64,000 bases of DNA from an uncultured bacterium (GCA_902775595.1 CACYNF010000001.1:15165-79164), one strand, 5' to 3'. Numbered from the stretch's first letter, positions 41,275-60,269 are shown. Numbers and translations are program-made. Notes: generated by a model not told the origin, from the sequence alone.

Positions 41275-41303
41275 TAAATTTCAGGAGCATGCGCCTGTTG
41301 ATT

Positions 41304-44300
41304 TCACGGCGCCTGCCCGAGCAGAAGGCGGACCGGGCCCAAAAGGCCGGATTTGACCGGCTCCTCCCCGTCGCCGAAATAGTCCCAGCTCGTGAACGCC
41401 ACGCGGTTCGTCGCGGGACGCGAGCCGTCCGGACGCCACGCCCAGCCGGGGATGCGCTTAAGTCCCCTCCCGCAGAACGACTGCGTGCCAGACATGTCGC
41501 TCTGGTGGGTCCTGGCGGGCCCCCACTCGCAGTCGTCGTCCGGAAGCACATGGTCGCCGAGAAGCCTGTTGTGCCACCCGTTTACGACCTCGACCTCAAG
41601 TTCGTTCTCTCCCTGCCGCGCAGCGTCAAGCGTCGCCACCTCGAACGGCGCGTGCCACGCGACGCCGAGGTCGCGCCCGTTGAGACGAACCCGCGCGATG
41701 TCCGCGACATCTCCGAGATCGATCTTCCGGGCGGCCTTCGCGTCCTCCTTCGAAAGCTCGAGGCGCACGCGGTACATCGCCGCCCCGGAGAAGTATCGCA
41801 CGCCCGGGATGCCGGAGTCGGACCACGAGGAAAGGCCCTTCATCTCCAGCGGGGAGGCAGGTGCGCCGCGCCCGGGCTCAAATACGACGGACCACGTCCC
41901 GCCGACCGGCAGGCTGCGCGCAGTTTCGCGGCGGCGGCTTTCCGGCCAGGCGGCGCCGCGGCGGAACGTCACGAAGACCGACTCCTGCGGACCGAGCTTC
42001 ATCGGAAGGCGCACATAGCCGTCGACGGGATCGACGATTCCGAGAAACTCCGTCTCTCCCGTCCCGGGATACCAGAGCTCCGCCTGCCCTTCGGCGCGGA
42101 AATCGGCCGCAAAGGAAACTTCGCCCATGGAGACGTTAGCGACAAAGAAAAGCGCATTGCCGTCGGCGAGCCGACGCGCCGTTCCGAGAACGGGCCCGTC
42201 CGGTCCGACCGAAACCCCGCCAACTACGCAGAACGGACGCTTCGGCAGCTCGTCGCCCTCGCCAAGGACTTCTACGCCGGCCCTGCGCGCGCGTTCCACG
42301 GCCGCGGCACATTCGCCGCGCAGCGCTTCGGGGACGGCAAGAAACGGATAGGAACGGCCGGACTCGCGCACAACCGCGCGCCCGGCGGCGAAGTCTACGC
42401 CTGTCAGGAAGACACGCCGCGGCACGACGTCGACCCCGTCGGTGATGCCTCGGAAATCCTCGACCGCGAGAACGTCGATCGTCTCCTCGCCACGCTGCAG
42501 GCGCTCCTGGCATCGCGCAAGATAGGCGAAGAACGCCTTGCCGGGCTCGAACCACGTCTGGTTCTCCCCGAAGTGGGCGCCCCAGTAGCCCATGTTCATG
42601 CCGGGCTTGCGGCAGGCGGGAAACGGCTGGTGCACCCAGTGGTGCAGGAACATGCAGTTGACGCCGCGGGCAAACGACGCGTCCGTGCAGGCCTTGAAGT
42701 CGCGCGGTGCGAGAACGTACGGATCCTGGAACGGCATCGCCGTGTAGGCCTCGGCAGCAAGGATGCGCCGCCCCATCGCGCGCCCTACGGCGCCGCCGAG
42801 CTGCGGACTCCCGCCGACCGTGCCTTCCGGCACCCAGAACGGACGAGCCCCCCAGAACTCCGTCGTCGGCACGTCGCTCGCGCACGCCGCCTCGCATCTG
42901 TCGAACGGCCCGCCATAGGGCTCCACGACGAACATCATGCCCTTTTCGTGGATGCGCTCGCGGAACACCCGGTAGTGCCGCTCGGTCGAAAGCTCGCCGA
43001 CGGTGCGCGCCATGTCCGCCTTGATTTTCCCGGCCCCCTCCCGCGTCGCGCCGACATACGCGGGAAGAAGCGGAAGCGGGTCGTATCCGCGGCGCCTCGC
43101 GAACTCGTCGCGGAAGTCGTCCGTCCAGTCATACGGCCCCGCCTCGTAGCTGTCCATCAGCATGAAATCGAGCCCGACGTCTTTCGCGAGCACATGGTCG
43201 AGATGCAGATTGACGGCCTTCGCGCTCATCTTGTCGGCCTCGAGGCATCTGCCGACGAGCGACTTCGCGACCGGCATGCACTGCGAGCCCGTGCACGTGT
43301 AGCCGAAGCGGTAGACCATGCCGTCCCTCTCCACCGTGCCGACATCGCGGTAGAAGCCGAGATTCGCTTCGGGCCGCGCGGGCGCGGCGCCCTTCTCCGC
43401 GACCGTCCATACGAGTTTCTTCATCGCGTTCTCAGGCGTGATCCACGGCCCGCCAGAGACGGTGTAGCCGGGACAGTTGTGCATCCCCATCTTAAGCCCG
43501 CGCTTCTTCGCCTCGCGCGCCGCGAACGCGACATACTCCCACCATTTCCCCCCGCCGAACTCGAAATCCTCCATCGTGTCGTCATCATAGCCGTAGGCCG
43601 GGACTTCGGAACAGGGGCCGCGCGCGACCTGGAATATCACGGCGCCGCCGATGCCGGCCCCCTTCATGGCGTCGAGGTCGCGGACAATCCCCTCCTTGGA
43701 AACCGCGGTTCCGCACCAGTGCCACCAGACAAATGGCTTTGCGCAGGGCCCGTTCGCACGGCACGCCGGAGGGCGCGAGATCAGATCGTCGACCATGTCG
43801 CGGAGCTTCGCCTTCGAAGTCCTCTCGACAAGCACGCCGTGCGGTCCGTTCCCGGCCCTGGCCCAGACGTTGGACCCCGTCTTGGGGTCGACGGACATCG
43901 TGCCGCGCTCCAGGCCGAAGTCGCGTTCCCACCCGCGCACAGCGGCAAGCACCGTCAGTTCGTCCCACGAGGGACGGCCGCGGCGCTCTTCGTTCCAGAC
44001 CTTCATGCAGCGGACGAACGCCTCCGCCACCGGCCCCGAAGCAGCCCCCTGCCGCGCCGTTGGGATTCCCGTCAGGACATCCGCGCCGAGGTTGAAGTCG
44101 ACGAAAAACACGGGGACAGGGCTTTCGCCGATCGCCTTGGCGGAGGATTCCGCGTCCATCCGGAGGTTGCATTCCATCCCATCCGGCAGGACGCCGCCCA
44201 TCGCGTACCACGCCTTGACCTTCTTCGCGACGAGTTCGCGGCCGGAGAGCGGAGATATGCCGTCGGCTTCCGTCTCCAGAAGGCGGCGGACGTTCGTGAG

Positions 44301-44762
44301 GAATCCGACGGTGCAGATCGTGACGGATCCGTCGGGAGAGCCGGCGAGCGCGCGGCGGTAGATTTCGTTCGCGTCCGGCGCGGAGTCGGTCGAGGGGTGG
44401 CGCAACGACCACTTCCGCGCCGCGACCATGTCGGAGAAGACTTCGCCGACGCCGTTGAGCTCGGTGCCGAACCGAAAGCCGATGTCCCTGCAGACGCCCA
44501 TCGGGATGTCCGCGCGTCCGTACTCCGCGTTTATCGTCTCGCACATTCCGAGCGCCGGAGAACTGCGCGAGGACGACACGACGGCGAGGATTTCGCATTC
44601 TCCGGCGTCGGCGAGCGCGTTGAGGGCCGCAAGCGCGCCGACGTCGTCGTAGTCCCCGCACATATCGGTGTCGAAGATGATGCGCGCGCGGTCGGCGCGC
44701 ACAGCCGACGCCGACAACGCCAGGAGAGCGGCATATGCCAAAGCTGAAAGAGTTCTTGCCAT
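41304..44762 (-). CDS. secreted fusion: nucleoside-hydrolase-like domain + large glycoside hydrolase (GH106-like/GH2-sugar-binding-type C-terminus)
   Basis: 1152 aa with a signal peptide. IUNH motif IIFDTDMCGDYDDVGAL. Hydrolase core PFVWWHWCGTAVSKEGIVRDLDAMKGAGIGGAVIF. C-terminal sequence VRLNGRDLGVAW...VVNGWHNRLLGD. Confidence 0.7.
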   Translation of the reverse strand: MARTLSALAYAALLALSASAVRADRARIIFDTDMCGDYDDVGALAALNALADAGECEILAVVSSSRSSPALGMCETINAEYGRADIPMGVCRDIGFRFGTELNGVGEVFSDMVAARKWSLRHPSTDSAPDANEIYRRALAGSPDGSVTICTVGFLTNVRRLLETEADGISPLSGRELVAKKVKAWYAMGGVLPDGMECNLRMDAESSAKAIGESPVPVFFVDFNLGADVLTGIPTARQGAASGPVAEAFVRCMKVWNEERRGRPSWDELTVLAAVRGWERDFGLERGTMSVDPKTGSNVWARAGNGPHGVLVERTSKAKLRDMVDDLISRPPACRANGPCAKPFVWWHWCGTAVSKEGIVRDLDAMKGAGIGGAVIFQVARGPCSEVPAYGYDDDTMEDFEFGGGKWWEYVAFAAREAKKRGLKMGMHNCPGYTVSGGPWITPENAMKKLVWTVAEKGAAPARPEANLGFYRDVGTVERDGMVYRFGYTCTGSQCMPVAKSLVGRCLEADKMSAKAVNLHLDHVLAKDVGLDFMLMDSYEAGPYDWTDDFRDEFARRRGYDPLPLLPAYVGATREGAGKIKADMARTVGELSTERHYRVFRERIHEKGMMFVVEPYGGPFDRCEAACASDVPTTEFWGARPFWVPEGTVGGSPQLGGAVGRAMGRRILAAEAYTAMPFQDPYVLAPRDFKACTDASFARGVNCMFLHHWVHQPFPACRKPGMNMGYWGAHFGENQTWFEPGKAFFAYLARCQERLQRGEETIDVLAVEDFRGITDGVDVVPRRVFLTGVDFAAGRAVVRESGRSYPFLAVPEALRGECAAAVERARRAGVEVLGEGDELPKRPFCVVGGVSVGPDGPVLGTARRLADGNALFFVANVSMGEVSFAADFRAEGQAELWYPGTGETEFLGIVDPVDGYVRLPMKLGPQESVFVTFRRGAAWPESRRRETARSLPVGGTWSVVFEPGRGAPASPLEMKGLSSWSDSGIPGVRYFSGAAMYRVRLELSKEDAKAARKIDLGDVADIARVRLNGRDLGVAWHAPFEVATLDAARQGENELEVEVVNGWHNRLLGDHVLPDDDCEWGPARTHQSDMSGTQSFCGRGLKRIPGWAWRPDGSRPATNRVAFTSWDYFGDGEEPVKSGLLGPVRLLLGQAP

Positions 44763-47691: not shown

Positions 47692-49608
47692 TTATTTCTC
47701 CTTGTGTTGTCTGAAATCGCGTATCATGTCCTTTACGACGGCCCAGCGCTCGCGCCTTATCTGCTTGACCGCGTTCGAAAGCCGCAGCCTGTCCATTACG
47801 GCCTCCCTGTCGCCGGTCGCTGGCAGCGCCCCGCGCAGGGCCTTGAAATGCGCCTCCCAGAACGACCTTACGAAGTCCTGCAGTATGTCCGTCGCGCTCA
47901 TGCCGCTCGACTCCGTCTTTCCGGCCCCAACGAGGACGGCGTCAAACCACTCCCCCTCCCTCTGCCCGAGGCTCGCCGCGAAGGTCGCGAACACGTCCTC
48001 TCCGCTGGCCGCCTCCATGCGCCAGGTCTCGACGAACCGCCACGTGAAGGCGTGGGCGAAGACCTCGCGCGGCAGGAACTCGCCTATCATGCCGTCAAGC
48101 GTCCTGTCGCGCTCGTTCGACATGAGGAACTCCATGAACGCCGTCTCCCGCGGCGGCGGCGGCGCGACTTCTGCGGCGTCGGCCGCAGAAGGAGTCGGAA
48201 GTCTGGAGTCGAGAGCTGAAATCCGGCTGTCCACATCGTCCTCATCGGCAGAAAGTTCCTGCGCGGCGGATGGCTGGTGGCGTGGAGCGGCGGCCTTTTT
48301 CCTCCTGACCGCCTCAAGCTCCTCCGCAAGCGCGGCGGACGGGAGCCCCAGGAGCTTCGACGCCTCGCCGACCATGCTCGCCCTCAAGACCGCCGACGGA
48401 CATGCGGCAATCGTCGCGAGGACCGCCTTCGAGACGCGCGCCACGGCGTCGATCGACGACGGATCCGCCTCCTTCGCGCGCTCGACGCGGCACTGGAAGG
48501 ATATTATCGACTCGCCCTTCTCCAAGAGCGCGCGGAATTGCCCGGCACCTTTCGTCCTCAGGAACGAATCAGGGTCGTCGCCGTCGGGAAGGGAGACTAC
48601 GCGCACGGGAATCTCCGCCGCGAGCAGCATGCCCGCCGAACGAATGGTCGCCTTGTGGCCCGCCGCATCGTCGTCATAGACGAGGACCGCCTGGCTCGCG
48701 ACGCGCTTGAGCATCCTCACGTGCTCGTCGGTGAACGCCGTTCCCTGCCCGGCGACGGCGTTCGCGAAGCCGCTCGCATGGAGGCGAATGCAGTCGATCT
48801 GCCCTTCGCAGACTATCACCTCGCAGTGGGGGTCCTTCCCGATCGCGCGGCCCGCGCGGTCGAACCCGAAGAGGACGTTGGACTTCTTGAAGATCGCCGT
48901 CTCCGGGGAATTCACGTACTTGCCGGAGTTCTTCTTCTCGACAAGCTGCCGCCCCGAGAACGCGACGACCCTGCCCTGCTTGTCGCGCACGGGAAACATA
49001 AGCCGCCCGCCGAAGCGGTGGTAGCCGCTGTCGCCCGGCCTGTTCGGCGCCTTGACGACGCCTGCGGCCTCGAGCTCTTCCGGCGTGTACTTGTACTTCT
49101 CGGCCCAGCGCAGGATGTTCGCGACGCCGTTCGGCGCGTAGCCGATCCCCCAGTCCTCCGCGACGGCGCCGGCGAGGGCGCGGCTCTCAAGGTATTTCCG
49201 CGCGGTCTCGCCCTCCTTCGCCTGAAGGAGGCAGCGGCGGTAGAACGCGGCGAGCTCGGCCATCAGCGAGTAGAGGCGCTTGCGGAGGCCCGCGTTGGGG
49301 TCTTCGGCCTCCTCGATCTTGACGCCGCACTGCTCGGCGAGCTTCTTCACGGCCTCGACGAACGTGAGGCCCTCCTGCTTCTGCACGAACTTGATTGCAT
49401 CGCCCGACTCGCCGCAGCCGAAGCAGTGGTAGAACCCCTTGGACGAATTGATGTTGAAGGACGGGGTCTTCTCGTGGTGGAACGGGCAGCACGCCTTCGC
49501 CGTCGCCCCGGCGTGCTTCACCTGTATGCCGTACGACGATATCAGTTCGGCGAGGTCGATCCTCGACTTGATATCCTCGATTACAGACTCTGTGATTCCC
49601 ATTGCCAT
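47692..49608 (-). CDS. dnaG: DNA primase
   Basis: ORF 47692..49716 trimmed to ATG 49608 (MAMGITESVIEDIKSRIDL). Zinc ribbon CCPFHHEKTPSFNINSSKGFYHCFGCG, plus a TOPRIM region (VIVCEGQIDCI, YDDDAAG). Confidence 0.93.
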   Translation of the reverse strand: MAMGITESVIEDIKSRIDLAELISSYGIQVKHAGATAKACCPFHHEKTPSFNINSSKGFYHCFGCGESGDAIKFVQKQEGLTFVEAVKKLAEQCGVKIEEAEDPNAGLRKRLYSLMAELAAFYRRCLLQAKEGETARKYLESRALAGAVAEDWGIGYAPNGVANILRWAEKYKYTPEELEAAGVVKAPNRPGDSGYHRFGGRLMFPVRDKQGRVVAFSGRQLVEKKNSGKYVNSPETAIFKKSNVLFGFDRAGRAIGKDPHCEVIVCEGQIDCIRLHASGFANAVAGQGTAFTDEHVRMLKRVASQAVLVYDDDAAGHKATIRSAGMLLAAEIPVRVVSLPDGDDPDSFLRTKGAGQFRALLEKGESIISFQCRVERAKEADPSSIDAVARVSKAVLATIAACPSAVLRASMVGEASKLLGLPSAALAEELEAVRRKKAAAPRHQPSAAQELSADEDDVDSRISALDSRLPTPSAADAAEVAPPPPRETAFMEFLMSNERDRTLDGMIGEFLPREVFAHAFTWRFVETWRMEAASGEDVFATFAASLGQREGEWFDAVLVGAGKTESSGMSATDILQDFVRSFWEAHFKALRGALPATGDREAVMDRLRLSNAVKQIRRERWAVVKDMIRDFRQHKEK

Positions 49609-49621
49609 TGAATTGAAGTAT

Positions 49622-49630
49622 ATTATACCA
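49622..49630 (-). promoter_or_regulatory. extended -10 box TGGTATAAT upstream of dnaG (14 nt to the ATG)
   Basis: attatacca on the plus strand; ATG at 49608. Confidence 0.55.
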
Positions 49631-49658
49631 TACTGAGTGTGTATATGCGCGTCCCCCG

Positions 49659-50076
49659 CCTTGGGTGCAGCGAGCAATTTATGCAGGGAACCCACAAATT
49701 GATGGCACTTGCGCATTGCGCATATATTGGCATATATGTGTTTTGCGCTGACGCGCGACCGCAGGGGCGGCGGTGGTGACGCGACTGGCGAGGCATCGCC
49801 TCAAGCCATGTCGCGGCGACACTGCCGAATGTTGCCACAAGGCAACGCGACGTTCGCAAGGTTCGTGGTCGCGCGTCATTCGCCCGCGCCGGCAGGCGTC
49901 GGGTTGCCTGAGCGCGAGATGCACCTGCGGCGAAGCCGTCAGGTCCCCCGACGAGCGAAGCGAGGAGCTTTGCGAAGCAAAGTCGCAAGAGGGTGCGCGC
50001 GAACCCCGAAGGGGCCGCAAGGGGCCGAGCGCCCCCCATCGCATTGACTTTACATAAATAACTCGTTGCACCCAGG
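49659..50076. repeat. about 418-bp GC-rich element bracketed by imperfect ~24-bp inverted repeats (MITE-like or structured RNA)
   Basis: The left arm CCTTGGGTGCAGCGAGCAATTTATG (49659-49683) matches the reverse complement of the right arm 50053-50076 (CCTGGGTGCAACGAGTTATTTATG). The interior holds many short GNRA-type hairpins (gttgcc-acaa-ggcaac, ctttgc-gaa-gcaaag, cccc-gaa-gggg). Confidence 0.45.
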
Positions 50077-50100: not shown

Positions 50101-50988
50101 TCACGGTGCTGCGAACGCGGTTTTCTTGATGCGGGGAATTTCTCCGGAGTCAAGTTTCATGAATGCGAAACACTTTCTGCCGAGGTCCTTGAGAGATGCG
50201 CCGATGAGATAGACGTCCTTGTCGTCGATGATGAGAAACCTGTCATGGAAAGACTCATTGTACCGGACGGCAAGCTTCGGGTACTGGGCGTTGAAGGTCG
50301 CAATGTCGGCAGGGGAAATCTTATGGTGCGGGACATGCTTCTTGTCATAGTGCCCCGAAGTGAAGACCGTCACCTTCACTCCTTTGCCTTTCTTTGCAAG
50401 GAGATCAAGCGTCTCCGGCGTCGCCCAGTTGTCGATGAGGATAATCGACCGCTTTGCGGTCTGGATCAGTTTCAGCACCAGCGCCCGCGCGTCCCACAAT
50501 TGTCCGTCGTAGAATACACCTTGAATAGGCGGCAAGGCGGTTTGTAACACAAGATTGATTTGCTCCTCATGCTTGAGGACTTTCTGCTCCAATCGTGCAA
50601 ATCGCTCGTTGACGGCATATCCGCGCAAAACATACTCTTTCAGAATTCTATTAGCCCACTGCCTGAATCTGGTACCAATTACTGATTTTACGCGATACCC
50701 GACGGAAATAATTACATCTAGACTATATAGGGCCACTGGTCTGTCCGAGGTTGCAATTTGCAAATAATGCAAATTGCTTTCCTTGTCCAGCTCACACTCA
50801 GAAAAAATGTTCTTTATGTGCCGACTTATTACAGATACATCGCGTTGAAACAGCTCGCACAACTGCGCCTGCGTCAGCCACACCGTCTCGTTTTCAAGAC
50901 GGACGGCGAGCCTGATTGTGTCGTCCGGCTGATAGACGACGATTTCGTTCTTGGGCTCAGGCAGATTACGCGGTTGATTATTGTTCAT
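50101..50988 (-). CDS. RhuM-family protein
   Basis: ORF 50101..51129 trimmed to ATG 50988 (MNNNQPRNLPEPKNEIVVYQ), with GGAGGT upstream. Sequence VWLTQAQLCELFQRDVSVISRHIKNIF...VGYRVKSVIGTRFRQWANRILKEY. The C-terminal part has a degenerate PLD-like motif, HDRFLIIDDKDVYLIGASLKDLG. Confidence 0.8.
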   Translation of the reverse strand: MNNNQPRNLPEPKNEIVVYQPDDTIRLAVRLENETVWLTQAQLCELFQRDVSVISRHIKNIFSECELDKESNLHYLQIATSDRPVALYSLDVIISVGYRVKSVIGTRFRQWANRILKEYVLRGYAVNERFARLEQKVLKHEEQINLVLQTALPPIQGVFYDGQLWDARALVLKLIQTAKRSIILIDNWATPETLDLLAKKGKGVKVTVFTSGHYDKKHVPHHKISPADIATFNAQYPKLAVRYNESFHDRFLIIDDKDVYLIGASLKDLGRKCFAFMKLDSGEIPRIKKTAFAAP

Positions 50989-51016
50989 GGCAATACCTCC
51001 ATTAGGATGCCCTCGA

Positions 51017-51199
51017 TCAACGCGACTGGCCGTTCGAGCCGAAGCCGCGGAAGATTTCGGCGAAACCTGGCGGAAGGTCCTTGAGAAGATCCTCGCCGCT
51101 CTTGCCGACGTCATCCCTCGCGCAGACATAGTTCCTGCACATTATTCCATCGCGCCAAGGGCATGTTCCCGTTGCGCACTTCGGACAGATTTGCTCCAT
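51017..51199 (-). CDS. small Cys-rich (zinc-ribbon-like) hypothetical protein
   Basis: ORF 51017..51283 trimmed to MEQICPKCATGTCPWRDGIMCRNYVC..., with AGGAG about 8 nt upstream. It lies 28 nt upstream of rhuM. Confidence 0.4.
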   Translation of the reverse strand: MEQICPKCATGTCPWRDGIMCRNYVCARDDVGKSGEDLLKDLPPGFAEIFRGFGSNGQSR

Positions 51200-51617: not shown

Positions 51618-52163
51618 TTATTCTGCGCCCGCGGGCAAACGCTCGCCGCTGGGCACGTCCCCAGGCAACAGGCGAAGGGACTTGTGCGACAGCGCGAACT
51701 GGATTACGGACTGGATTCCCTCGAATTTCTTTGGCGCAGTGCCAACGGCAAATCTCTCTATGGTCTTGTCGCCCGCTCGCAACCGCAGATAATATGCCGT
51801 CGCATCAAGCGGCGACGCGGCCTGCCCATCGTTGATGCCCGGCCAGGCCTCGACATGTGCCTGTTCGACATTATGTACGAGTCTTCGCCACTCACGCCCT
51901 TCAAGGGCAAGATCCAACCGCATCCCGTCAAACCGGCAGGATTCCCAGCCCATGGCGTCATGCAATCCACACTTGAACCGAAACCGCCGCGCATTGAAAT
52001 CGATCCACATCTCCACCATCACCTCATCTGGGATGCGGCTTTCGTGGTAATAGAGCGAGTCGACTTTCTCGCCGTTTTCAAGCACAAGCGCATCGCGGTA
52101 GGCGCATCCACCCACCGCAAGCAGCGCCAAAGCCATCGCGAGGCATTTCACTATCGGCGACAT
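51618..52163 (-). CDS. hypothetical lipoprotein
   Basis: 181 aa with a signal peptide and lipobox, MSPIVKCLAMALALLAVGGCA. No family recognised. Confidence 0.6.
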   Translation of the reverse strand: MSPIVKCLAMALALLAVGGCAYRDALVLENGEKVDSLYYHESRIPDEVMVEMWIDFNARRFRFKCGLHDAMGWESCRFDGMRLDLALEGREWRRLVHNVEQAHVEAWPGINDGQAASPLDATAYYLRLRAGDKTIERFAVGTAPKKFEGIQSVIQFALSHKSLRLLPGDVPSGERLPAGAE

Positions 52164-52223: not shown

Positions 52224-52352
52224 TCAGAACGGCATGTCGCCGTCGTCGGGTTTTGGCGGCAGGCCGCTCGGGTCCGCCGCGGACTTGAATCGTTCGACAC
52301 GGCACGTCTCAGTAGACGCAAGCAGTTTTTCCAATTCGCTCTTCGTTATCAT
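52224..52352 (-). CDS. 42-aa micro-ORF (AlbA_2/Schlafen-like N-terminal stub ending in an SSB-tail-like DDGDMPF)
   Basis: My own translation gives MITKSELEKLLASTETCRVERFKSAADPSGLPPKPDDGDMPF*. It has AGGAGG 5 nt upstream and its own TGGTATAAT box. It is below the ORF-track size cut-off. Confidence 0.4.
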   Translation of the reverse strand: MITKSELEKLLASTETCRVERFKSAADPSGLPPKPDDGDMPF

Positions 52353-52369
52353 AGCCTCCTTATCACAAA

Positions 52370-52378
52370 ATTATACCA
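52370..52378 (-). promoter_or_regulatory. extended -10 box TGGTATAAT upstream of the micro-ORF
   Basis: attatacca on the plus strand, 18 nt from ATG 52352 with AGGAGG in between. Confidence 0.55.
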
Positions 52379-52408
52379 TATTCACACCTTCACCACATCC
52401 GGTCACCC

Positions 52409-53176
52409 TCACTTACTGCGAGTTCGCTTTTTGCCGAATTGGGCACTTCGCAGCTTCTCAAATTCTCCGCGCCAGTCATCGCCCTTCATCTTCCCTGCAG
52501 CAGCCATCATCTCGACAATCTCCTTTGCTCCGCGTTGGTAGTCAACGATATTCGTAAAAGCGTCAACCGAAACCCTACGGGGCATTGATTGATCCGCGTC
52601 ATCACTCCGCCAAAAGCCACGATTGCTCCCCGGCGGCAATTCAGTATCTACCAGGTACACTCTGGCTTTCGGGTTCCCGATTGTGATGCCAAGCAACTTG
52701 TTGTACTCGGAATCTTCTTCCTCGGACTCCATATACATGGTATTCATCACATCACAATATACACAACCGGAGTCATCAATCCAATCAATGCCCGCATGCG
52801 AGGGAAACTTGAAATTCGCCAACACATCATCTGTGTAATTCCACCGTACGCGCACTTCGTCGCCATTTGCAATGAGCCGCCCGCCGTCTTCCGGCGATTC
52901 ACCCTGAAAGCAGACAGTTCCGGACAACCGATATTTGCGCGGACGCAACACCTTGTCATTCAGGTACTTAATCCACCCAATGTAACCGTAGAACTTCTCA
53001 CCTTCATCCCACTCGATGCTGCGGCCATCACCACCGACTCGCCATTGGCACCAGATACTAGGCATCACACGATCATCATGCCGAGAGTCGCGGATCTCCT
53101 CAATGATTTCGAATGTCCGATCGTCGATCCTCTTGTTGAGCGTAAACACACCCGAGAATTTCGTATTGTAGCCCAT
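52409..53176 (-). CDS. hypothetical protein (255 aa), last gene of a three-gene operon
   Basis: MGYNTKFSGVFTLNKRIDDRTFEIIEEI...WCQWRVGGDGRSIEWDEGEKFYGYIGWIKYL... I recognise no family. Its ATG lies 1 nt after the ORF6N stop. Confidence 0.65.
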   Translation of the reverse strand: MGYNTKFSGVFTLNKRIDDRTFEIIEEIRDSRHDDRVMPSIWCQWRVGGDGRSIEWDEGEKFYGYIGWIKYLNDKVLRPRKYRLSGTVCFQGESPEDGGRLIANGDEVRVRWNYTDDVLANFKFPSHAGIDWIDDSGCVYCDVMNTMYMESEEEDSEYNKLLGITIGNPKARVYLVDTELPPGSNRGFWRSDDADQSMPRRVSVDAFTNIVDYQRGAKEIVEMMAAAGKMKGDDWRGEFEKLRSAQFGKKRTRSK

Positions 53177-53177
53177 T

Positions 53178-53741
53178 TTACTTCACCTCCTTAACGATCT
53201 CATGGAGGGAATCGCCGCCCGCTTTCTTAACCCTTCGAACGGTGTGCTTGAGCTTTCCGATGAGAAAGTTGATCTCCAGCGACGATTCGGTTTCCGCCGT
53301 GGTGAGATCGGGCATGACGATGTCCGTCAGCGCCTCGCCGAAATGCCGCATCATGGAGTTGCGCTTCTGAGCGTCTGGTTCCGCGTGCAACGCCAGCAGC
53401 TCACGCTTCATCGCCCTGACCTCGGCATAGGTCTCGATGATGGAAAGCGTCGTGCGCACCGCCTGTTCGCCCTTCAGAATCGTTGCAAGCATATACAGGC
53501 CCTTTTCGGTGAAGACCTTGTAGCCGTGTTTGGAATGATGTCCTTTACCAGGATTGGTCTCTAAGGTCAAAATTTTTGATCTTAGAACCTTGATCTCTTC
53601 CTGCGTCAGCTCCACGACATATCCTGCCGGAAACTTCCCGGGATTGTTTTTGACTGCCTGATTGATTATGCGCGTCTCAACACCATACAGCGCTGCAACG
53701 TCGCGGTCCAGCAGAACTTGCTGGCCGCGGACTTGCAGCAT
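53178..53741 (-). CDS. ORF6N-domain (KilA-N-related) DNA-binding protein
   Basis: 187 aa: VRGQQVLLDRDVAALYGVETRIINQAVKNNPGKFPAGYVVELTQEE is the ORF6N signature. Confidence 0.8.
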   Translation of the reverse strand: MLQVRGQQVLLDRDVAALYGVETRIINQAVKNNPGKFPAGYVVELTQEEIKVLRSKILTLETNPGKGHHSKHGYKVFTEKGLYMLATILKGEQAVRTTLSIIETYAEVRAMKRELLALHAEPDAQKRNSMMRHFGEALTDIVMPDLTTAETESSLEINFLIGKLKHTVRRVKKAGGDSLHEIVKEVK

Positions 53742-53746
53742 GTCTT

Positions 53747-54235
53747 CTATGCCAATACCTGATATTTCAAGTCTGGATAGCCACCGACAAGTCGGGCCAA
53801 AGCGCCTGCGGAATCTATGGCCGCGAACACAACACTCTCTGAATGTTCGAGAATGTAGCGATTGCGGATGGAGGCCGTTCGTACATCGACACGCGCCACA
53901 GACCGAGCAACGGGCGAGATAACCAACAGACGCCCGGAGGCAATGGGCTCACGATAGAGCTTCGGAATGCCCTTCTCGGTCCATAGCTTGCGCGCCAGCA
54001 CCCAAATGACCGGTTGCTTCCCCTGGAGGAGAAACGCCAGCACATCCCTTTCAAGCGGACTCTGAAAGCCGCCCATGACGCACACGCCCTCATCGCGCAT
54101 CTCCGTCGCCCAGTCGTAGCACTTCATGACCGCCTCGGGCGGAACCTTGCGTGACGACAGAAAACCGACCTTGGGCAGATCAAGGATTGACTCATCTCCC
54201 AACGTAGCAATCTGTGCGGACTTGCTCATTCTCAT
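53747..54235 (-). CDS. DprA/Smf-like (SLOG-superfamily) Rossmann-fold protein, short form
   Basis: 162 aa. It is colinear with the DprA Rossmann core: VGFLSSRK.., VMGGFQSPLERDVLAFLLQGKQPVIWVLARKL (compare VSGxAxGIDxxAHxxAL...IAVL), LVISPV....RNRYILEHSESVVFAAID. The canonical GID/AH residues are replaced. Confidence 0.55.
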   Translation of the reverse strand: MRMSKSAQIATLGDESILDLPKVGFLSSRKVPPEAVMKCYDWATEMRDEGVCVMGGFQSPLERDVLAFLLQGKQPVIWVLARKLWTEKGIPKLYREPIASGRLLVISPVARSVARVDVRTASIRNRYILEHSESVVFAAIDSAGALARLVGGYPDLKYQVLA

Positions 54236-54312
54236 CCCTTCTCCATATTTCGCTTCACATTAGCCCCTGTCCTTCACCGAGGTTAGTCATGTTGTTGCCA
54301 ACTGCAAACTTT

Positions 54313-54331
54313 GTGCATTTTGAAAATGCAC
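54313..54331. promoter_or_regulatory. perfect 9+1+9 palindrome GTGCATTTT-G-AAAATGCAC (candidate operator)
   Basis: Read directly. It lies about 80 nt upstream of the DprA-like ATG and 10 nt after the stop of the wHTH stub. The loop is too short for a hairpin. Confidence 0.45.
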
Positions 54332-54340
54332 CATTTCTCC

Positions 54341-54746
54341 TTACTCCGCGTTTCCCTTCGCAACCTCCCAGTGTCCGCCCTTGCGCCCGCCGACTCTCAC
54401 GATCTTGCCTTCGGACTTCAGCTGCGCAAGGTTCTTCTCCACGCCACGCACCGAAAGTCCGACTTCCCTTGCCAGGCGTTCGCGTGTGATGTACGGGTAC
54501 TGGGCGATGAGATCAAGAATCTTTACCACACTTTTTACCATACCTTTTCCCACACTCATCTTCACTTCGGCCAATGCATCACGCAGCGCAAGAAGCATGA
54601 ACTCGATGAACCTTCTGGCATCACCTGTGCGATCAGCAAAGGTGCGTGGCAATCTCCGTTATCTCGGCGACAAGCGAGATCATCTTATCGCTCAAAGTAT
54701 AACTCGGGACTTTCCCGGTTCTCCGCGTCACATTTTTCTTCTTCAT
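54341..54746 (-). pseudogene. Fic-like (or AlbA_2-type regulator) remnant: N-terminal stub + out-of-frame C-terminal winged-helix domain, catalytic core missing
   Basis: The 54633-54746 frame reads MKKKNVTRRTGKVPSYTLSDKMISLVAEITEIATHLC* (Fic_N-like). The 54341-54652 frame reads ...DARRFIEFMLLALRDAL...ILDLIAQYPYITRERLAREVGLSVRGVEKNLAQLKSEGKIVRVGGRKGGHWEV (wHTH). No HPFxxGNGR motif is present. Confidence 0.4.
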
Positions 54747-54923
54747 CCTCAACCTCCTCTTCATATTATATAACATCAGGCCACACCCAACGCCCGCCCG
54801 GTCGCCACCATCGCCCAAAAGCCGCTTGCAATTCTCCTCCAGGCGGCCACCAACTTCACAACCCCGCCCGTTTGATTTTTCTTACTCATATCTTTGCCGG
54901 TCTTCACTTTCTATTTCCTCCAC

Positions 54924-55070
54924 TCATATCATTCGAACTGGCGCCAGTACGACAGACTTCCCCGTCCCGGCCTCGCCCGACACATAGAAGTTCCCGTCCT
55001 GCGCCATGGCAAAGTCAATCGCCGACGCCCGCTTTGGATCAAGTTTCTCTGTTTTCGGCAACCAACTCAT
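54924..55070 (-). pseudogene. truncated P-loop helicase (RecD/Pif1/AAA_30-like) N-terminal stub
   Basis: My own translation gives MSWLPKTEKLDPKRASAIDFAMAQDGNFYVSGEAGTGKSVVLAPVRMI*. The Walker A motif is followed by a stop. Its ATG overlaps the stop of the upstream nuclease gene (ATGA). Confidence 0.5.
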
Positions 55071-55813
55071 GTTATTATAGAAAAATGCGTCTCAGACTTC
55101 AGCAGCCTTTTCAAGCGATTCTGAATACCGCCAATCGTCATCAGTATCTGCGGTTCGAAGATGTTCGCGGGGATATTGTCGTGAATCGTGCAGACGATCT
55201 GCCGCGCAGGGCCGTCCTCCGTCACAAAGGCGGCCTCTCGTCTCGCCCACTGCATGACATTGACCATCGGTCCGCTTTTGACTTCAAACAGATAAAACCG
55301 CTTCTCGATCTGGACGACCAAGTCCATTTCGGTGAACAAGTCCGACTCACCCTTCCGCGTTAACTTGACATTCTGAAACATCTTGTATGCGAGATGATTG
55401 TCCGTGCAGAACTTCCACACCACCGTGGAAATTGCATAGCGGAAGCATTGTTCAGCCCACATCGAGCGGAAGAAGCGCAACTGATGTTCGTTCGAAGGAA
55501 GCTGCACGGAAAAATCACTCTTCTTGTGCGTCCACTCTGTCGCATATCCAATCTTTTCCAGTTCCAAGAGAAAGTTCCGCAAATGTCCACTGTCCTCGGC
55601 ATTCGGCACATGAAACTCGAATGTGCGCTTCTTTGCATTTACCTCCACTGCCAGCTTCGTCAGGAACGGCAGCAACACCCGCTTGTTCCTGAATATCTGC
55701 CGCGCCAGCTTGTAATCCTCGCCCGGCTGCTGGCTGACCTCTTCCTCATTGGCGATCTCGAACCCTCTCTCGCCAACGAACACCGCAAACGCTTTTGTCA
55801 GTTTAGTTGCCAT
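55067..55813 (-). CDS. PD-(D/E)xK nuclease-fold protein, Card1/DUF1887-like C-terminal domain
   Basis: 248 aa: FFRSMWAEQCFRYAI (compare GxWLEEYV) and TEMDLVVQIEKRFYLFEVKSG (D...E-x-K). I do not recognise the N-terminal ~100 aa. Confidence 0.55.
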   Translation of the reverse strand: MATKLTKAFAVFVGERGFEIANEEEVSQQPGEDYKLARQIFRNKRVLLPFLTKLAVEVNAKKRTFEFHVPNAEDSGHLRNFLLELEKIGYATEWTHKKSDFSVQLPSNEHQLRFFRSMWAEQCFRYAISTVVWKFCTDNHLAYKMFQNVKLTRKGESDLFTEMDLVVQIEKRFYLFEVKSGPMVNVMQWARREAAFVTEDGPARQIVCTIHDNIPANIFEPQILMTIGGIQNRLKRLLKSETHFSIIT

Positions 55814-55856
55814 GTCATTCTCCTCTCAGCAGCCTTCCGACCTTTGAATGGTGTCT

Positions 55857-57329
55857 TTACTTTCCAGCATTACCGTTGATAAATTCTTCATAATAAGTGG
55901 TAATTCCCCATCGGAAATCAGAGCAGCCCAACACACCTCTGCGTATGATTTCAGGAGAAACGCCGCACTTCAACAGAACCATTCCCATCATAAAACCCTC
56001 AAGCCAAAAATATGCTGACAGATACATCTTATCGTGTATGAGCGCCTTACTCTCTGAATGGGCAAACCCGTCACGTCGAGTTCGAAGATAATTTGTGTAC
56101 GCCAACCATGCATTGTCATTATCAAGATGAAAGAATGCGCACTTCATATTAAGTCGCGCCAAATCAAACAGCTCCTGAATCTTTGGAGGCTTAAACTTCA
56201 GTCGCCTGTAAAGCCAGTCCTTCAACTCCGGTTTGCTCCCCAACATTGCCAAGACATTGTCTGCATTGGTTTTGTGAACTTGATACCCCGGCATCTCTTC
56301 TCGCTTAAGGTTCAAATCCTCTCCATACAAATTGCGCGCCAAACCCTCAAACATAAAAACGAGCTCCGGAACGCCGCCATATGGGACTGCCGTCTGCCCT
56401 AATCTAAAATAAACAAGGCGCCCACAAATCCCTTCAATTTCATCATTCAACTTGAAATAGTTTTCCACAATACGCGGCAGTTCTTTTTCAACCACATCGT
56501 ATGGAACAAATATATCTTCTCGCTTTAACGGCGTCAACAGCTTCTGCGGCAAAGGCCTTCTATTTAGGTGCCAAGCAACACCTGCTGTTTTCATCGTTCC
56601 GCTCAATGGATAATCAGCCCTTCCACATCGACCATAATGCGTAGCATTCTTCCCAATCAACAGTCCAAAGAAGGAATTCAGACGGTGCTCATAATACTCG
56701 TAGCATCCCGTCTCACCATAATAGGGGAGCAACCCTTTTTTCGACTTAATAAAAACACACGGCTCATGACGCATCGTTTTCCGACTCGTTCCCTCCATTA
56801 TCGACTGAACTGGAAGAAATGCCAAATAAACACGGACGAAGGCATCCTCAAATATCAGTCGATGAGGCTCAACATGCTTTGACTTGCCGTCCTTTGGGCT
56901 GAAACATCCTCGATTCAACCATACATTCAAATTGCTAATGCCAAATGCATAAGACTCAAATGCAATATCTTCAGCAGAATCAAACCCCAAATCTCCAACC
57001 CACATTTCAATAAAACCAAGCTCTGCCGATTCAGTCCCCAACCCAAATCCTCGGCTCATCAGGCTCTGATGCTCAAGACACTTAAGTAATGCTACATGAC
57101 GTACTGGATGAACACACCCGCGCACAAAACCATCAAAATCTTTCGTTTCCCCCGGGTAGCCGAACAATCGCAGCGATGCGCCATCTTCTCCATGAGAAAA
57201 CGCGACCACCCCAGAAGCTTTCGTCTCTGTTCCCGGTCGCCACCAATATCCGCTCGCCCGAAAAGGTTTGAACTCATCATCCAAGCTCACAATCGCGCCA
57301 GCAACTTCATGCTCTTCTTCATCATCCAT
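55857..57329 (-). CDS. ApeA-like HEPN-domain defence protein
   Basis: 490 aa. The N-terminus is ApeA_NTD-like (FRASGYWWRPGTETKASGVVAFSHGEDGASLRLFGY). The C-terminal HEPN motif R-x4-H is in LRTRRDGFAHSES. GAGGAGG lies upstream of the ATG. Confidence 0.6.
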   Translation of the reverse strand: MDDEEEHEVAGAIVSLDDEFKPFRASGYWWRPGTETKASGVVAFSHGEDGASLRLFGYPGETKDFDGFVRGCVHPVRHVALLKCLEHQSLMSRGFGLGTESAELGFIEMWVGDLGFDSAEDIAFESYAFGISNLNVWLNRGCFSPKDGKSKHVEPHRLIFEDAFVRVYLAFLPVQSIMEGTSRKTMRHEPCVFIKSKKGLLPYYGETGCYEYYEHRLNSFFGLLIGKNATHYGRCGRADYPLSGTMKTAGVAWHLNRRPLPQKLLTPLKREDIFVPYDVVEKELPRIVENYFKLNDEIEGICGRLVYFRLGQTAVPYGGVPELVFMFEGLARNLYGEDLNLKREEMPGYQVHKTNADNVLAMLGSKPELKDWLYRRLKFKPPKIQELFDLARLNMKCAFFHLDNDNAWLAYTNYLRTRRDGFAHSESKALIHDKMYLSAYFWLEGFMMGMVLLKCGVSPEIIRRGVLGCSDFRWGITTYYEEFINGNAGK

Positions 57330-57762: not shown

Positions 57763-58554
57763 TTATTGACAAATTATGTCATACAACTCTTGCAAATCTG
57801 CAGGAATACGATTGTTAACTCTTTGATATTTGGCAATCGACACCGCAAAATCGCGAAGCGACACTTTATCTGCAAAGGCACGTTGCCGAACCTGACCGAA
57901 CAACTCCTTGCCCGGAAATGTCTGCGTCCACATTCCATCATTCAAATTAGACGTGTATCGCATAACTGTAACATGGACCTTTTCTGCGATAGCATCTTTC
58001 GTCAGAGTCTCCTTGGATCGGTCCGTCATTGTGGCCACCCAATTTGCATTCACGATGTATTCACAGGCCTCTTTCTCACTTTTTAAGGAGAACACAGAAG
58101 GATGCTTCGGGAAGTCATCGAAAAATGTCTTGCGAAGATCAGCAATCACATCACAACAGGCGACCGAGTAAACCATTTGACCAGCAATCGCTTTAAGTTC
58201 ACTTTCAAAATCAAATCGAGTATTGGCGGACGCCTTCTCGCATGCTTTCATTGAAACAGCATCAATCAAATAATTCTCTATTTCATGACATGTACCACGG
58301 AAAATCTCCGTTCCTTCTTCATGCCACTTGTCGTGGTTGTCTCGCCCGAAATCCTTATCAATCAGTCCGTATGCGTTCACGCCAGCATGCTTTCGCTCAA
58401 ACGCAACAATGCCCTTGACCGCATGAACACATCCAGCAACCCGTACCTCAACCGAACCTGAATCAAAGACAAAAAGCTCCTTCAGGTATTCTGCCGTCAG
58501 TTCATCCTCCACATAGAGGCGTGCCTTGTATCCCCGCGCCCCAAATCCACTCAC
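57763..58554 (-). CDS. DUF4435 / TOPRIM (OLD-family-like) protein, AriB-like
   Basis: 263 aa: LYVEDELTAEYLKELF, GLIDKDF and CHEIENYL. The GTG start overlaps the ATPase stop (GTGA), with GGAGG 8 nt upstream. Confidence 0.75.
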   Translation of the reverse strand: MSGFGARGYKARLYVEDELTAEYLKELFVFDSGSVEVRVAGCVHAVKGIVAFERKHAGVNAYGLIDKDFGRDNHDKWHEEGTEIFRGTCHEIENYLIDAVSMKACEKASANTRFDFESELKAIAGQMVYSVACCDVIADLRKTFFDDFPKHPSVFSLKSEKEACEYIVNANWVATMTDRSKETLTKDAIAEKVHVTVMRYTSNLNDGMWTQTFPGKELFGQVRQRAFADKVSLRDFAVSIAKYQRVNNRIPADLQELYDIICQ

Positions 58555-60269
58555 AGTACACCTCCCTTCAAGAAGAAACGCTGCGATTCATAGACCGAGT
58601 TCCAGATGTCTTCGGAATGTGTCGCCACCACAAACTGCGATTTGGGAGAAACTTCAAGCAAAACAGGCAACAACAGCCGATGCCACACCTGATTCAAGTG
58701 CAACTCCGGCTCATCCATGAACACAAAGTCATACGGACGGCTTCTAAGTTCCTGTTCGAGTATCAACGCAGCAATCAGGCAGAACAACTCAATTTCTCCT
58801 GAACTGAGCGCGTCCACAGGAATCGGTTTTTCGACGTCTTTCTTCCGCAAAAAAATGTCGAACTTCATCTCACCGGCAATGTCCGCCAAGAACTCCATTT
58901 CCTCATCTGGATAAAACCGCCGCCAAGCCTTGTTCAACCGCTCGAACACCTTCTTGACCGTGTCAGCCATACCCTTGCCGGATGCGTAGCCCGCATATCC
59001 TTGAAGATTCACAAGCATTTGCTTGATGTCCGCAAGATTGTTTTCACCGGACGACACCGTCTGCACAGGATCACCGTTCCCCATCGTCATGCCAAGCCCC
59101 CCAACCAATCTTGGCGCACGCCATGACGAGAGATAGTACATCTTAAGTTTCCGCAACGCCTGAATATCCTCAATGGGCATCGGCAATGCCTGTGACTTCC
59201 CCTTCCCAGTCACAGTGGCATAGAATCCTTTGTTCGCGACATTGGACAGGCGAATCAAATCTCCATTCTCTTCACGAACCAGTTCTATGGAAACTTCACC
59301 CAACGCTGACCCTCGCACATCCTGACGAACGATATTTTGGTACGCCGGATTAAGCGTACTCATGCACGCCTCCAGAACGCTTGTCTTTCCGCTGCCGTTC
59401 AACCCTGCCAAAACACACATGCCATTGGCATCGTGCAAATCAATGTCAACCGACCGAATCGCTCGGTAATCCCTGATTTGAATTCGCGATATCTTCATTG
59501 GACCCAGCTCCTTTGCCTCACCACTTGACCTTGAAAACCGTTTCCTGTCCGTCTCCGCATGTGTCAGCAATTCGGATTCATCCAGCTCCCGCCCGTAAAT
59601 CCGAATGGCATGGATTGTCCCGATAAAACCATTGCTGAACTGCGCCAATTTTGATTTACCTAATCTGACATTATTGATGTATGCTATATCACGATGTTCA
59701 GCCGGGTATGCAGCGCAAAAAATCACCGTACCGTTTACGATAACGCGGAGCAACCGATACTGTCCAGAAATCGACACGCTCAAATGTACCAACGCATCCG
59801 TGGGGACACGTTCAAAACGGCTAATGGCAGATGGCAATGATCCCGCAACCAACGATCCATCACCCCGGCCATACAGCCCATGCTCACTAAAAGGCCCGAC
59901 ATCATGCGCCGACACTATCGAAAACATTCGCGCTTTTGCGGAAATCGTCAGTGCATACTCAATTGTAAAGCCGGTCCTATCTGCTGCATTATAGGCATCA
60001 ATCACATCGCGGAACTGATTAACATCCGTAACCGACATTGATGCCCGTCCATCGAAAAAAGCACCGTTATCAAACCAAGAGACACTCCCCTCGTTGATTG
60101 AAGCACTTCGGCCTTCATGGGCCAAGTCCGCCCATGTTGTCGCATTCAAACTTGTTTGATTCTTAGCGACGTTACAAACACCATCAAACCAAAGCAATAA
60201 TTTGTCGGCGGAATACACATCCTTTTTGGGTTTCGCCGCCCACATCGCTCCACGAGCTCCTATCAGCAT
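58551..60269 (-). CDS. LamG/ConA-like domain fused to an ABC/SMC-type ATPase (AriA-like)
   Basis: A single 572-aa frame. Residues ~20-250 are LamG_3-like (LLLWFDG, FTIEYALTIS, LVHLSVSISGQYRLLRVIVNGTVIF, NGFIGTIHAIRIYGRELDESELL). Residues ~255-572 are the ATPase (MKISRIQIRDYRAIRS, GLNGSGKTS, LSSGEIELF, FVFMDEPELHLN, VATHS). Confidence 0.75.
   Translation of the reverse strand: MLIGARGAMWAAKPKKDVYSADKLLLWFDGVCNVAKNQTSLNATTWADLAHEGRSASINEGSVSWFDNGAFFDGRASMSVTDVNQFRDVIDAYNAADRTGFTIEYALTISAKARMFSIVSAHDVGPFSEHGLYGRGDGSLVAGSLPSAISRFERVPTDALVHLSVSISGQYRLLRVIVNGTVIFCAAYPAEHRDIAYINNVRLGKSKLAQFSNGFIGTIHAIRIYGRELDESELLTHAETDRKRFSRSSGEAKELGPMKISRIQIRDYRAIRSVDIDLHDANGMCVLAGLNGSGKTSVLEACMSTLNPAYQNIVRQDVRGSALGEVSIELVREENGDLIRLSNVANKGFYATVTGKGKSQALPMPIEDIQALRKLKMYYLSSWRAPRLVGGLGMTMGNGDPVQTVSSGENNLADIKQMLVNLQGYAGYASGKGMADTVKKVFERLNKAWRRFYPDEEMEFLADIAGEMKFDIFLRKKDVEKPIPVDALSSGEIELFCLIAALILEQELRSRPYDFVFMDEPELHLNQVWHRLLLPVLLEVSPKSQFVVATHSEDIWNSVYESQRFFLKGGVL

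Follow-up and report, generated by a model that had tools for sequence, protein, structure and literature searches.

The locus described here raises the question of whether three tightly packed genes in a bacterial defence island work as one system or were assembled from separate sources. The genes lie at positions 52409-54235 of a 64,000-nucleotide (nt) stretch of DNA from an uncultured bacterium (GCA_902775595.1 CACYNF010000001.1:15165-79164), referred to in its full length as the window, and all are encoded on the minus strand: gene 1 (53747-54235; 162 amino acids, aa), gene 2 (53178-53741; 187 aa) and gene 3 (52409-53176; 255 aa). Spacers of 5 nt (53742-53746) and 1 nt (53177) separate them. 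From this arrangement and a 19-bp palindrome upstream, a previous sequence-only reading had proposed a three-gene cassette in a defence island, made up of a divergent DprA/SLOG-like sensor, an ORF6N DNA-binding protein and an effector. The three open reading frames (ORFs), both short spacers and the palindrome were all present as described, and the island setting was borne out by defence-type neighbour genes and by a drop in GC content from 63-66% to 45-55% directly past dnaG (47692-49716), which continued to the window end with every gene of the low-GC part on the minus strand. The cassette itself did not hold up, as the trio was not conserved as neighbours. The locus is likely a mosaic of separately inherited cassettes in a horizontally acquired, eroding defence island, rather than a dedicated three-part system. 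The host is probably a rumen or gut bacterium of the Kiritimatiellae/Victivallales type.

Conservation of the gene neighbourhood

Genes 1 and 3 were never found together outside the window. Gene 1 was missing from all 10 of the other distinct contexts in which gene 3 homologs were located (43-92% identity), and gene 3 was missing from all 93 loci of the gene 1 family, which covered 478 kb in total. Members of the gene 1 family did stand beside ORF6N or RhuM genes in 14/93 loci, as would suit a joint operon, but there gene 1 was placed 3', not 5', of the ORF6N/RhuM gene, the reverse of the order in the window.

The association of gene 3 with ORF6N-type genes was of a different kind. Including the window, 11 distinct gene 3 contexts were available, from related bacteria that share ancestry and do not represent independent samples. 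A gene 2-like ORF6N gene was located directly 5' of gene 3 in 6 of these 11 contexts (45-92% gene 3 identity), and the pairing was kept at identities as low as 45% for gene 3 and 58% for gene 2, with gaps of 23-41 nt. A PLD-like gene fronted by an ORF6N or RhuM domain was found 3' of gene 3 in 8/11 contexts, a count that includes the window despite an intervening AlbA_2 remnant and lipoprotein-like ORF. Altogether, an ORF6N or RhuM gene adjoined gene 3 in 9/11 contexts, compared with a background of ~15% in islands of the same kind (the 14/93 gene 1 loci). Neither type of gene was next to gene 3 in loci L030 and L121/122; the association is strong and not obligate.

All three genes are real and maintained by selection, since each has many homologs and a low pairwise ratio of nonsynonymous to synonymous substitution rates (dN/dS) against its closest orthologs. 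The ratio was 0.17-0.30 for gene 1 (with the misaligned L043 comparison left out), 0.03 for gene 2 and 0.165 for gene 3, the last value being alike in both halves of the protein. Purifying selection on every gene and very short spacers on a single strand would both favour a three-part operon.

The junction between gene 1 and gene 2

Genes 2 and 3 lie within a single block (52373-53742, minus strand) that matched loci L009-L012 with 94% nucleotide identity over 1,373 nt. Its edges fall 1 nt 5' of the gene 2 ATG and 36 nt 3' of the gene 3 stop codon, and the flanks are unrelated on both sides. The nucleotide homology of loci L013-L018 to the window was limited to the gene 1 ORF (54229-53747). 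The ends of these homology blocks were sharp, at 53742/53747 on one side and at 52373/52378 on the other.

The stretch between the two blocks (53742-53746, minus strand) was mapped by nucleotide comparison with L009-L012 and L038. In L009-L012, the gene 2 orthologs begin with MKNQQSNIVNIDINVVKSR and continue with MLQVRGQQ; the window protein lacks the 19 N-terminal residues of these 99%-identical orthologs, and the 3' end of gene 1 stands where the 19 extra codons are found. Gene 2 in the window thus begins at an internal methionine, and it does so without an obvious ribosome-binding site. Judged by these alignments, the 5-nt spacer was left by a recombination or deletion event and did not evolve to couple the two genes, because homology breaks there and the 19 codons of gene 2 have been replaced by the end of gene 1.

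The same junction was found only in L038, and five other close gene 1 orthologs were followed by unrelated DNA. In L038, ~9 codons of gene 2 remain before the sequence passes into DNA whose counterpart in L009-L012 is found ~95 nt 3' of gene 3. The L038 lineage therefore retained gene 1 and dropped genes 2 and 3, and L009-L012 retain genes 2 and 3 without gene 1. L010 and L011 also carry a serine recombinase gene close to the block of genes 2 and 3. We also considered a clean insertion of genes 2 and 3 between gene 1 and an AlbA_2 gene, for which L100/L101 seemed to offer the empty site, with a gene 1-like gene followed by AlbA_2. These loci do not represent the empty site, because their gene 1 paralog is distant (~50% identity) and separated from AlbA_2 by a gap of ~260 nt.

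Gene 1 and its partners

At the level of fold, gene 1 proved to be the divergent DprA/SLOG protein that had been suggested. Its AlphaFold2 (AF2) model reached a predicted local distance difference test (pLDDT) score of 92.8, and the best Foldseek matches were the DprA proteins of Helicobacter pylori and Streptococcus pneumoniae together with ShosA, with E values of 2e-8 to 1e-7 and template-modelling (TM) scores of ~0.7. The DprA-type structures 4LJK, 5MLL, 3UQZ and 3MAJ were matched at E values of 2e-8 to 4e-7 and query-normalised TM scores of 0.67-0.71, the individual E values being 2e-8 for DprA (4LJK) and 1.2e-7 for ShosA (8ZVA). Next were 6Y01/2IZ7 (molybdenum cofactor carrier protein, MCP), 2NX2 (YpsA), 1T35/5ZBL (LOG) and 7UXS/6LHX (the SLOG domain of ThsA), at E values of 6e-5 to 5e-3. 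On the strength of the predicted structure, we are confident in placing gene 1 in the SLOG superfamily at fold level.

Sequence similarity to DprA was much fainter. The Pfam DprA profile (PF02481) gave 15.3 bits (E 0.012) over profile positions 34-171 of 212 and missed its 29.6-bit cut-off, and a profile of 42 gene 1 family members retrieved no DprA chain from the PDB at E<=10. The PADLOC PsyrA model was matched with an E value of 5.6e-12, limited to profile positions 123-251 of 398. As had been noticed from the sequence, GGFQSPLERD takes the place of the canonical G-x-A-x-G-I-D ... AH motif. Two further stretches, FLSSRK and RNRY, we take to be similar to the G-S/T-R and RNR motifs of DprA. 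The protein consists of a Rossmann domain only, whose last part is missing; it has no SAM domain and is shorter than DprA and ShosA. Classification of gene 1 as DprA proper, or as a member of ShosTA or PsyrTA, was rejected in view of the missing SAM domain, the replaced motif and the lack of a phosphoribosyltransferase (PRTase) or RecQ-like toxin.

The gene 1 family comprises at least 300 homolog clusters, of which 102 copies were sampled for neighbourhood analysis and 172 neighbour proteins were clustered. A same-strand ORF ended within 400 nt 5' of gene 1 in 89 of the 102 copies, with a median gap of 9 nt, and the upstream gap was 30 nt or less in 59 copies. The identity of the neighbours varied widely. 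A Fic protein with a winged helix-turn-helix (wHTH) domain, its core intact or partial, was located upstream in 11 copies, with gene 1 identities ranging from 43% to 91%. Other partners were members of the RhuM family (~13), AlbA_2 + HATPase_c_4 proteins (~14, mostly downstream), AbiEii upstream (5), AbiEi downstream (8), MmeI-type enzymes (8), a Lys/Ala-rich protein (6), PIN proteins (3) and many singletons. A single fixed partner was considered and discarded, as the first loci had mutually unrelated proteins upstream of gene 1 and the 172 clustered neighbours fell into many families. Gene 1 is a promiscuous, independently assorting gene that trails varied defence cassettes. Some loci (L016, L025, L050 and L057) carried two gene 1 family copies a few kb apart, each behind a different defence gene; those of L016 trail Fic and a truncated RhuM-PLD gene, and those of L025 trail the gene for a wHTH + transmembrane protein and AbiEii.

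The former partner of gene 1 in the window was identified by blastn against L038. In that locus, an intact 332-aa protein with Fic and HTH_24 (wHTH) domains is encoded directly 5' of a gene 1 ortholog of 91% identity. The window holds its pseudogene (54337-54863, minus strand), which consists of a 5' part that includes the leader (54639-54863) and a 3' wHTH part (54337-54638), matching L038 positions 696-916 (90%) and 1507-1807 (96%), respectively. Positions 917-1506 of L038 are missing in the window. This precise 590-nt internal deletion removed the catalytic core and shifted the frame, and therefore explains a 103-aa wHTH ORF at this place. The C-terminal part was also recovered by tblastn with the C-terminus of the L016 Fic protein. 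Gene 1 belongs with this dead upstream Fic gene, and not with genes 2 and 3.

The DNA between the Fic pseudogene and gene 1 contains the palindrome, GTGCATTTT-C-AAAATGCAC (54313-54331), a perfect one with 9-nt arms and a 1-nt centre that is situated 77 nt 5' of the gene 1 ATG. A role as operator was rejected, as the number of such elements was not above chance (with arms of 9 nt or more and loops of up to 5 nt counted, the window contains 7 perfect palindromes, against ~3.7 in Markov-1 simulations) and the palindrome was not conserved with gene 1. It is part of a hairpin-rich indel of ~82 nt (within 54235-54336). The closest relatives, L038 and L042, lack this segment and have 21 nt between Fic and gene 1; in L039 (560-700) the segment is longer and three hairpins are found, two more than in the window. 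This indel could be a small mobile element or one similar to repetitive extragenic palindromic (REP) sequences.

Additionally, the ~100-nt leader of the Fic gene (54737-54842 in the window) was found twice in L016 (870-948 and 1952-2055), once before Fic and once before the gene 1 copy that follows, and may be a portable promoter or leader common to cassettes of this lineage. A repeated intergenic element was not supported as an explanation, since the leader, though present at two sites in L016, was not repeated in the window.

Gene 2 and gene 3

The assignment of gene 2 to the ORF6N proteins was confirmed by Pfam (PF10543; E 2.8e-27), with 95.3 bits against a cut-off of 27.8 bits and coverage of profile positions 5-86 of 86. 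The protein consists of this domain and a helical tail. It also matched the PADLOC model PDLC04849 of the defence candidate PDC-S05 (E 4.5e-67), with residues 2-173 aligned to profile positions 15-182 of 183; its best PHROG matches were anti-repressors. Downstream, the gene at 50101-51129 (minus strand) encodes a RhuM/ORF6N-type N-domain and a PLD-like C-domain, is of the type usually found 3' of gene 3 homologs, and belongs to the same PDC-S05 family (PADLOC PDLC04879, 3.8e-99; Pfam RhuM, 1.7e-17). The PLD label is weak for this protein (Pfam PLDc_2, 18.6 bits against a 27-bit cut-off; Nuc 1BYR, E 0.64). The earlier view that the system could not be assigned to anything described thus needs to be divided: a PADLOC candidate covers both gene 2 and the RhuM gene close by, and gene 3 remains unassigned.

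Indeed, neither the single sequence of gene 3 nor its profiles found a named relative in Pfam, NCBIfam, PADLOC or the PDB, as the sequence-only reading had anticipated. A profile search of 1.84 billion representatives (E<=1e-3) resolved the protein into two parts. Of the 2,476 clusters retrieved, two representatives were full length and the others covered residues 1 to ~115, which define an N-domain (aa 1-115; 52832-53176, minus strand) of a large unnamed family spread over phages, giant viruses and bacteria. A further search returned 1,507 clusters, all hypothetical and none with a Pfam domain. Residues M1, G2, Y3, F7, W45, F62, W68, G86, G92 and G99 are invariant in the family, and the signature MGY-T-F-G-F ... 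WCQW ... WDGGEKFY-Y ... G-V-WQGE is common to the giant-virus relatives as well. The AF2 model of gene 3 had a pLDDT score of 73.7, with the N-domain predicted to form a beta-alpha-beta-beta-alpha-beta arrangement and a hairpin. The sole library match was phrog_38666, whose function is not known (residues 1-111; 3.5e-10), and in a viral structure library the model matched only uncharacterized Tupanvirus and mimivirus proteins (best, Tupanvirus A0A6N1NUV7, E 7.5e-8). Foldseek against the PDB returned nothing below an E value of 0.1, and a tblastn search of 50,697 annotated phage records with the N-domain as query gave no match. Standalone copies of the N-domain were present in viral contigs, and others sat in long rows of small unannotated ORFs that all point the same way, as in phage early regions. 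The family, represented among the loci by L032-L037 and L118-L120, was also seen in Chloroflexota (Dictyobacter) and many metagenomes, and in some of its members the first helix is followed by a long insertion.

The C-domain of gene 3 (aa ~125-250, minus strand) is confined to a small clade from rumen Kiritimatiellae/Victivallales-type bacteria. Full-length homologs formed 40 clusters, and the C-terminal half was limited to ~40 clusters, which came from metagenomes of the rumen and gut and included metagenome-assembled genomes (MAGs) labelled Kiritimatiellae and Victivallales. The full-length architecture occurred in bacterial contigs and MAGs only, with none among the viral contigs. A PD-(D/E)xK nuclease was tried as an identity for the C-domain and rejected, as no match was significant and the candidate catalytic lysine, K161, is replaced by methionine or leucine in several family members. 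The Pfam profile RE_Eco47II was matched below its cut-off by gene 3 (E 0.013) and by P0161 (8e-4), and the Foldseek matches to nucleases were weak (E>=0.11, TM<=0.22).

Same-strand arrays of ORF6N/RhuM-PLD-like genes in related loci (seen with L001:8822-9510, L013:3078-3494, L026 and P0039) include N-terminal fragments, internal-deletion derivatives such as a 138-aa RhuM-PLD protein in L013-L018, and a chimera, which suggests frequent recombination among these paralogs. The chimera is P0039, in which residues 1-93 of gene 3 are joined to the C-terminus of an ORF6N-PLD protein.

Proposed roles and alternative explanations

The preferred explanation of the locus as a mosaic supposes that small cassettes of one or two genes are shuffled and deleted at gene boundaries within such islands. 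The first unit in the window would be gene 1, formerly partnered with the Fic + wHTH gene that is now dead. The DprA-like defence proteins studied best are antitoxins, among them ShosA and PsyrA, whose toxins are neutralised indirectly. By analogy with these two, gene 1 may be an accessory protein binding single-stranded DNA (ssDNA) or nucleotides, and act as a regulator or damage buffer. ShosA binds ssDNA and RecA and acts via them, and its toxin is neutralised without direct binding (PMC12961424, PMC11961720). A buffer or regulator that needs no contact with its partner would fit the varied partners of gene 1. A nucleotide-ligand sensor like the SLOG domain of ThsA is another possible role, again by analogy.

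The second unit would be genes 2 and 3, a 1.37-kb block moving as one piece. Genes 2 and 3, the functional sub-unit with the strongest support, probably constitute a small defence or toxin-antitoxin (TA)-like module, and the pair probably works with a RhuM/ORF6N-PLD-like paralog. The mechanism could be a TA-like or abortive-infection-type variant of the PDC-S05 family, in which the conserved ORF6N protein would bind DNA as a sensor or autoregulator and gene 3 would be a partner or effector, possibly together with the PLD-like protein.

Several observations weigh against this account. As L038 has the same junction between genes 1 and 2, the junction must have some age; the trio therefore existed for some time and may be co-transcribed. 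The ShosA analogy may fail for gene 1, given its short size and missing parts. The gene 3 contexts are non-independent, coming from related bacteria, and gene 3 may work alone, given L030 and L121/122. For gene 3, no catalytic motif or fold match in the PDB and viral structure libraries pointed to an effector. Finally, the anti-repressor label that PHROG attaches to gene 2-like proteins fits an origin in mobile-element regulation equally well.

A more specific version of events can be put forward tentatively, though we regard it as rather unlikely. The real conserved trio would be an ORF6N protein of the gene 2 type, gene 3 and the ORF6N/RhuM-PLD-like protein, and would represent a new multi-gene form of RhuM/ORF6N defence. 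Gene 3 would contribute a captured phage early-protein domain with a new C-domain, serving as decoy, sensor or adaptor for a PLD-like effector.

It is unlikely, and in our estimate more so than that version, that each gene is an independent single-gene cassette and that the pairing of genes 2 and 3 reflects nothing beyond shared ancestry in one lineage. PDC-S05 was defined as a single-gene candidate, 4 of 10 assessable contexts had no gene 2-like neighbour for gene 3, two (L030 and L121/122) had no ORF6N/RhuM gene at all, and the arrays frequently contain deleted or chimeric genes, P0039 and the 138-aa protein among them. Such independence is difficult to reconcile with a block that keeps its 1-nt spacer, sharp ends and 94% nucleotide identity in differing surroundings, with a pairing that persists down to the lowest identities given above, and with an ORF6N/RhuM adjacency so far above background.

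Very unlikely is a third alternative, in which genes 2 and 3 are the leftover of a regulatory module from a phage or mobile element, an anti-repressor with an early accessory protein, and play no part in defence. The PHROG matches of gene 2 and the standalone N-domains in viral contigs, phage-early-like ORF runs and giant viruses are in line with it. In none of the 11 contexts, however, was the pair flanked by other phage genes, and the neighbours were instead restriction-modification, MmeI-type, SNF2, HNH and AlbA_2 genes; full-length gene 3 was absent from the viral contigs examined, and purifying selection on both genes is strong.

Least probable of all is the single operon of SLOG/DprA sensor, ORF6N DNA binder and gene 3 effector, for which the close spacing, the selection on every gene and the junction shared with L038 can be cited, but whose defining junction truncates gene 2, leaves it with no recognisable ribosome-binding site, and joins parts that L038 and L009-L012 keep separately.

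Other features of the island

The low-GC part of the window contains, in order, the RhuM/ORF6N-PLD-like gene, a lipoprotein-like ORF, the trio and then further defence genes. The ORF between the RhuM/ORF6N-PLD-like gene and the trio (51618-52163, minus strand; 181 aa, MSPIVKCLAMALALLAVGGC...) breaks the usual order of gene 3 followed by a RhuM-PLD gene. It appears lipoprotein-like from a signal peptide and lipobox read from the sequence, and it had no family match.

Gene remnants were found on either side of the trio. Abutting the gene 2-gene 3 block is a Schlafen/AlbA_2-type remnant (52224-52378, minus strand; MITKSELEKLLASTETCRVER...) of 42 codons followed by a stop, with 87% identity to the 5' end of the gene for a 471-aa AlbA_2 + HATPase_c_4 protein in L100/L101. 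Beyond the Fic pseudogene, a fragment of ~48 codons (54928-55070, minus strand) corresponds to the N-terminus of a P-loop helicase-like protein with the Walker A motif GTGKS, and is 89% identical to L041 positions 120-262.

Farther on follow, in order, a PD-(D/E)xK/NERD-like gene, an ApeA-NTD1 gene (PDC-S58), a PARIS-like pair (AAA_21/AriA and DUF4435/AriB), and an N6/N4-type methylase with a putative endonuclease. The first two of these (55067-57329), encoding an ApeA N-terminal-domain protein (490 aa) and then a 248-aa PD-(D/E)xK/NERD-like protein in the direction of transcription, may form another two-gene defence module. The PARIS-like pair (57763-60269) combines an AAA_21/AAA_15 ATPase with AriA/PtuA-type matches and a DUF4435 protein with AriB matches; the ATPase has an additional N-terminal region of ~250 aa with a weak concanavalin-like lectin match (Laminin_G_3), which is unusual for AriA.

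Scans of the region with Rfam and for tRNA genes were empty, and promoter and terminator scans gave counts not above those of shuffled sequence, with no signal standing out within the trio. Elsewhere in the window, two 1,152-aa ORFs on opposite strands overlap almost wholly (41289-44762). The one on the minus strand encodes a genuine glycoside hydrolase with GH106 and nucleoside hydrolase domains, and the one opposite, on the plus strand, is probably a shadow ORF of the high-GC sequence.

Implications and comparison with known systems

This locus shows directly that deletion in a defence island can bring unrelated cassettes together with almost no spacer between them, and it calls for caution when operons are predicted from sequence alone. 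Two pairings can be isolated from the locus. In one, a minimal DprA/SLOG protein is encoded behind Fic + wHTH; in the other, gene 3 stands behind an ORF6N gene, and a RhuM-PLD-like gene may or may not be added. Among the by-products, the gene 3 N-domain is the most notable and exposes a gap in the databases: a very large family of phages, giant viruses and bacteria that is described in no domain database. If the trio of ORF6N, gene 3 and RhuM-PLD were real, it would offer the first functional handle on this unnamed domain of ~2,500 clusters with its invariant N-terminal Met-Gly-Tyr. Current understanding is not overturned by these findings, and any value they have is in enlarging the catalogue of defence-island genes, here from the under-studied gut bacteria of the Kiritimatiellae/Victivallales type.

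With ShosA (of ShosTA) and PsyrA/RqlI (of PsyrTA), gene 1 shares a DprA-type Rossmann (SLOG) fold and a site in defence islands directly after toxin-like genes. It differs in its length of 162 aa, in lacking the SAM domain and the C-terminal part of the Rossmann domain, and in partners that vary widely. Pfam and PADLOC searches of the neighbours found no PRTase or RecQ-like toxin next to gene 1. PADLOC gave no ShosA or ShosT match and no PRTase domain was present among the neighbours, so that the likeness to 8ZVA is at the level of fold only; for PsyrT, no match was found among the neighbours, the sole trace in PADLOC being an E value of 0.046 on the wHTH remnant of the Fic gene.

The closest known counterpart of gene 2 is PDC-S05. 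A RhuM-type gene of this family protected E. coli against T7, T5 and T4, cutting the plating of T7 and T5 ~1000-fold (PMC12881386), and RhuM had been proposed earlier as a toxin embedded in restriction-modification loci (PMC3710099). Gene 2 and the gene at 50101-51129 match PDC-S05 models over nearly their full length. The one validated member, from another organism, had a full RhuM domain, whereas gene 2 has the ORF6N domain and a helical tail only. PDC-S05 is moreover a single-gene candidate, whereas here the ORF6N gene usually has gene 3, for which PADLOC has no model, as its companion, and often a second ORF6N/RhuM-PLD-like paralog as well.

Gene 3 shares its N-domain with phrog_38666 and with the Tupanvirus and mimivirus proteins, in which the domain is standalone or joined to other unannotated extensions. 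Relative to these, gene 3 adds a clade-specific C-domain of ~130 aa and resides in bacterial defence islands.

Finally, genes 2 and 3 can be set beside type II TA systems. They differ from these in that gene 3 has no recognisable toxin fold or motif and at times occurs without gene 2, and in that both proteins are larger than is typical. They resemble them in being small, co-directional genes with a 1-nt spacer in one block of a defence island, led by a gene for a DNA-binding protein, and in their pattern of evolution, with a highly conserved first gene (dN/dS 0.03) and a faster second one (0.17).

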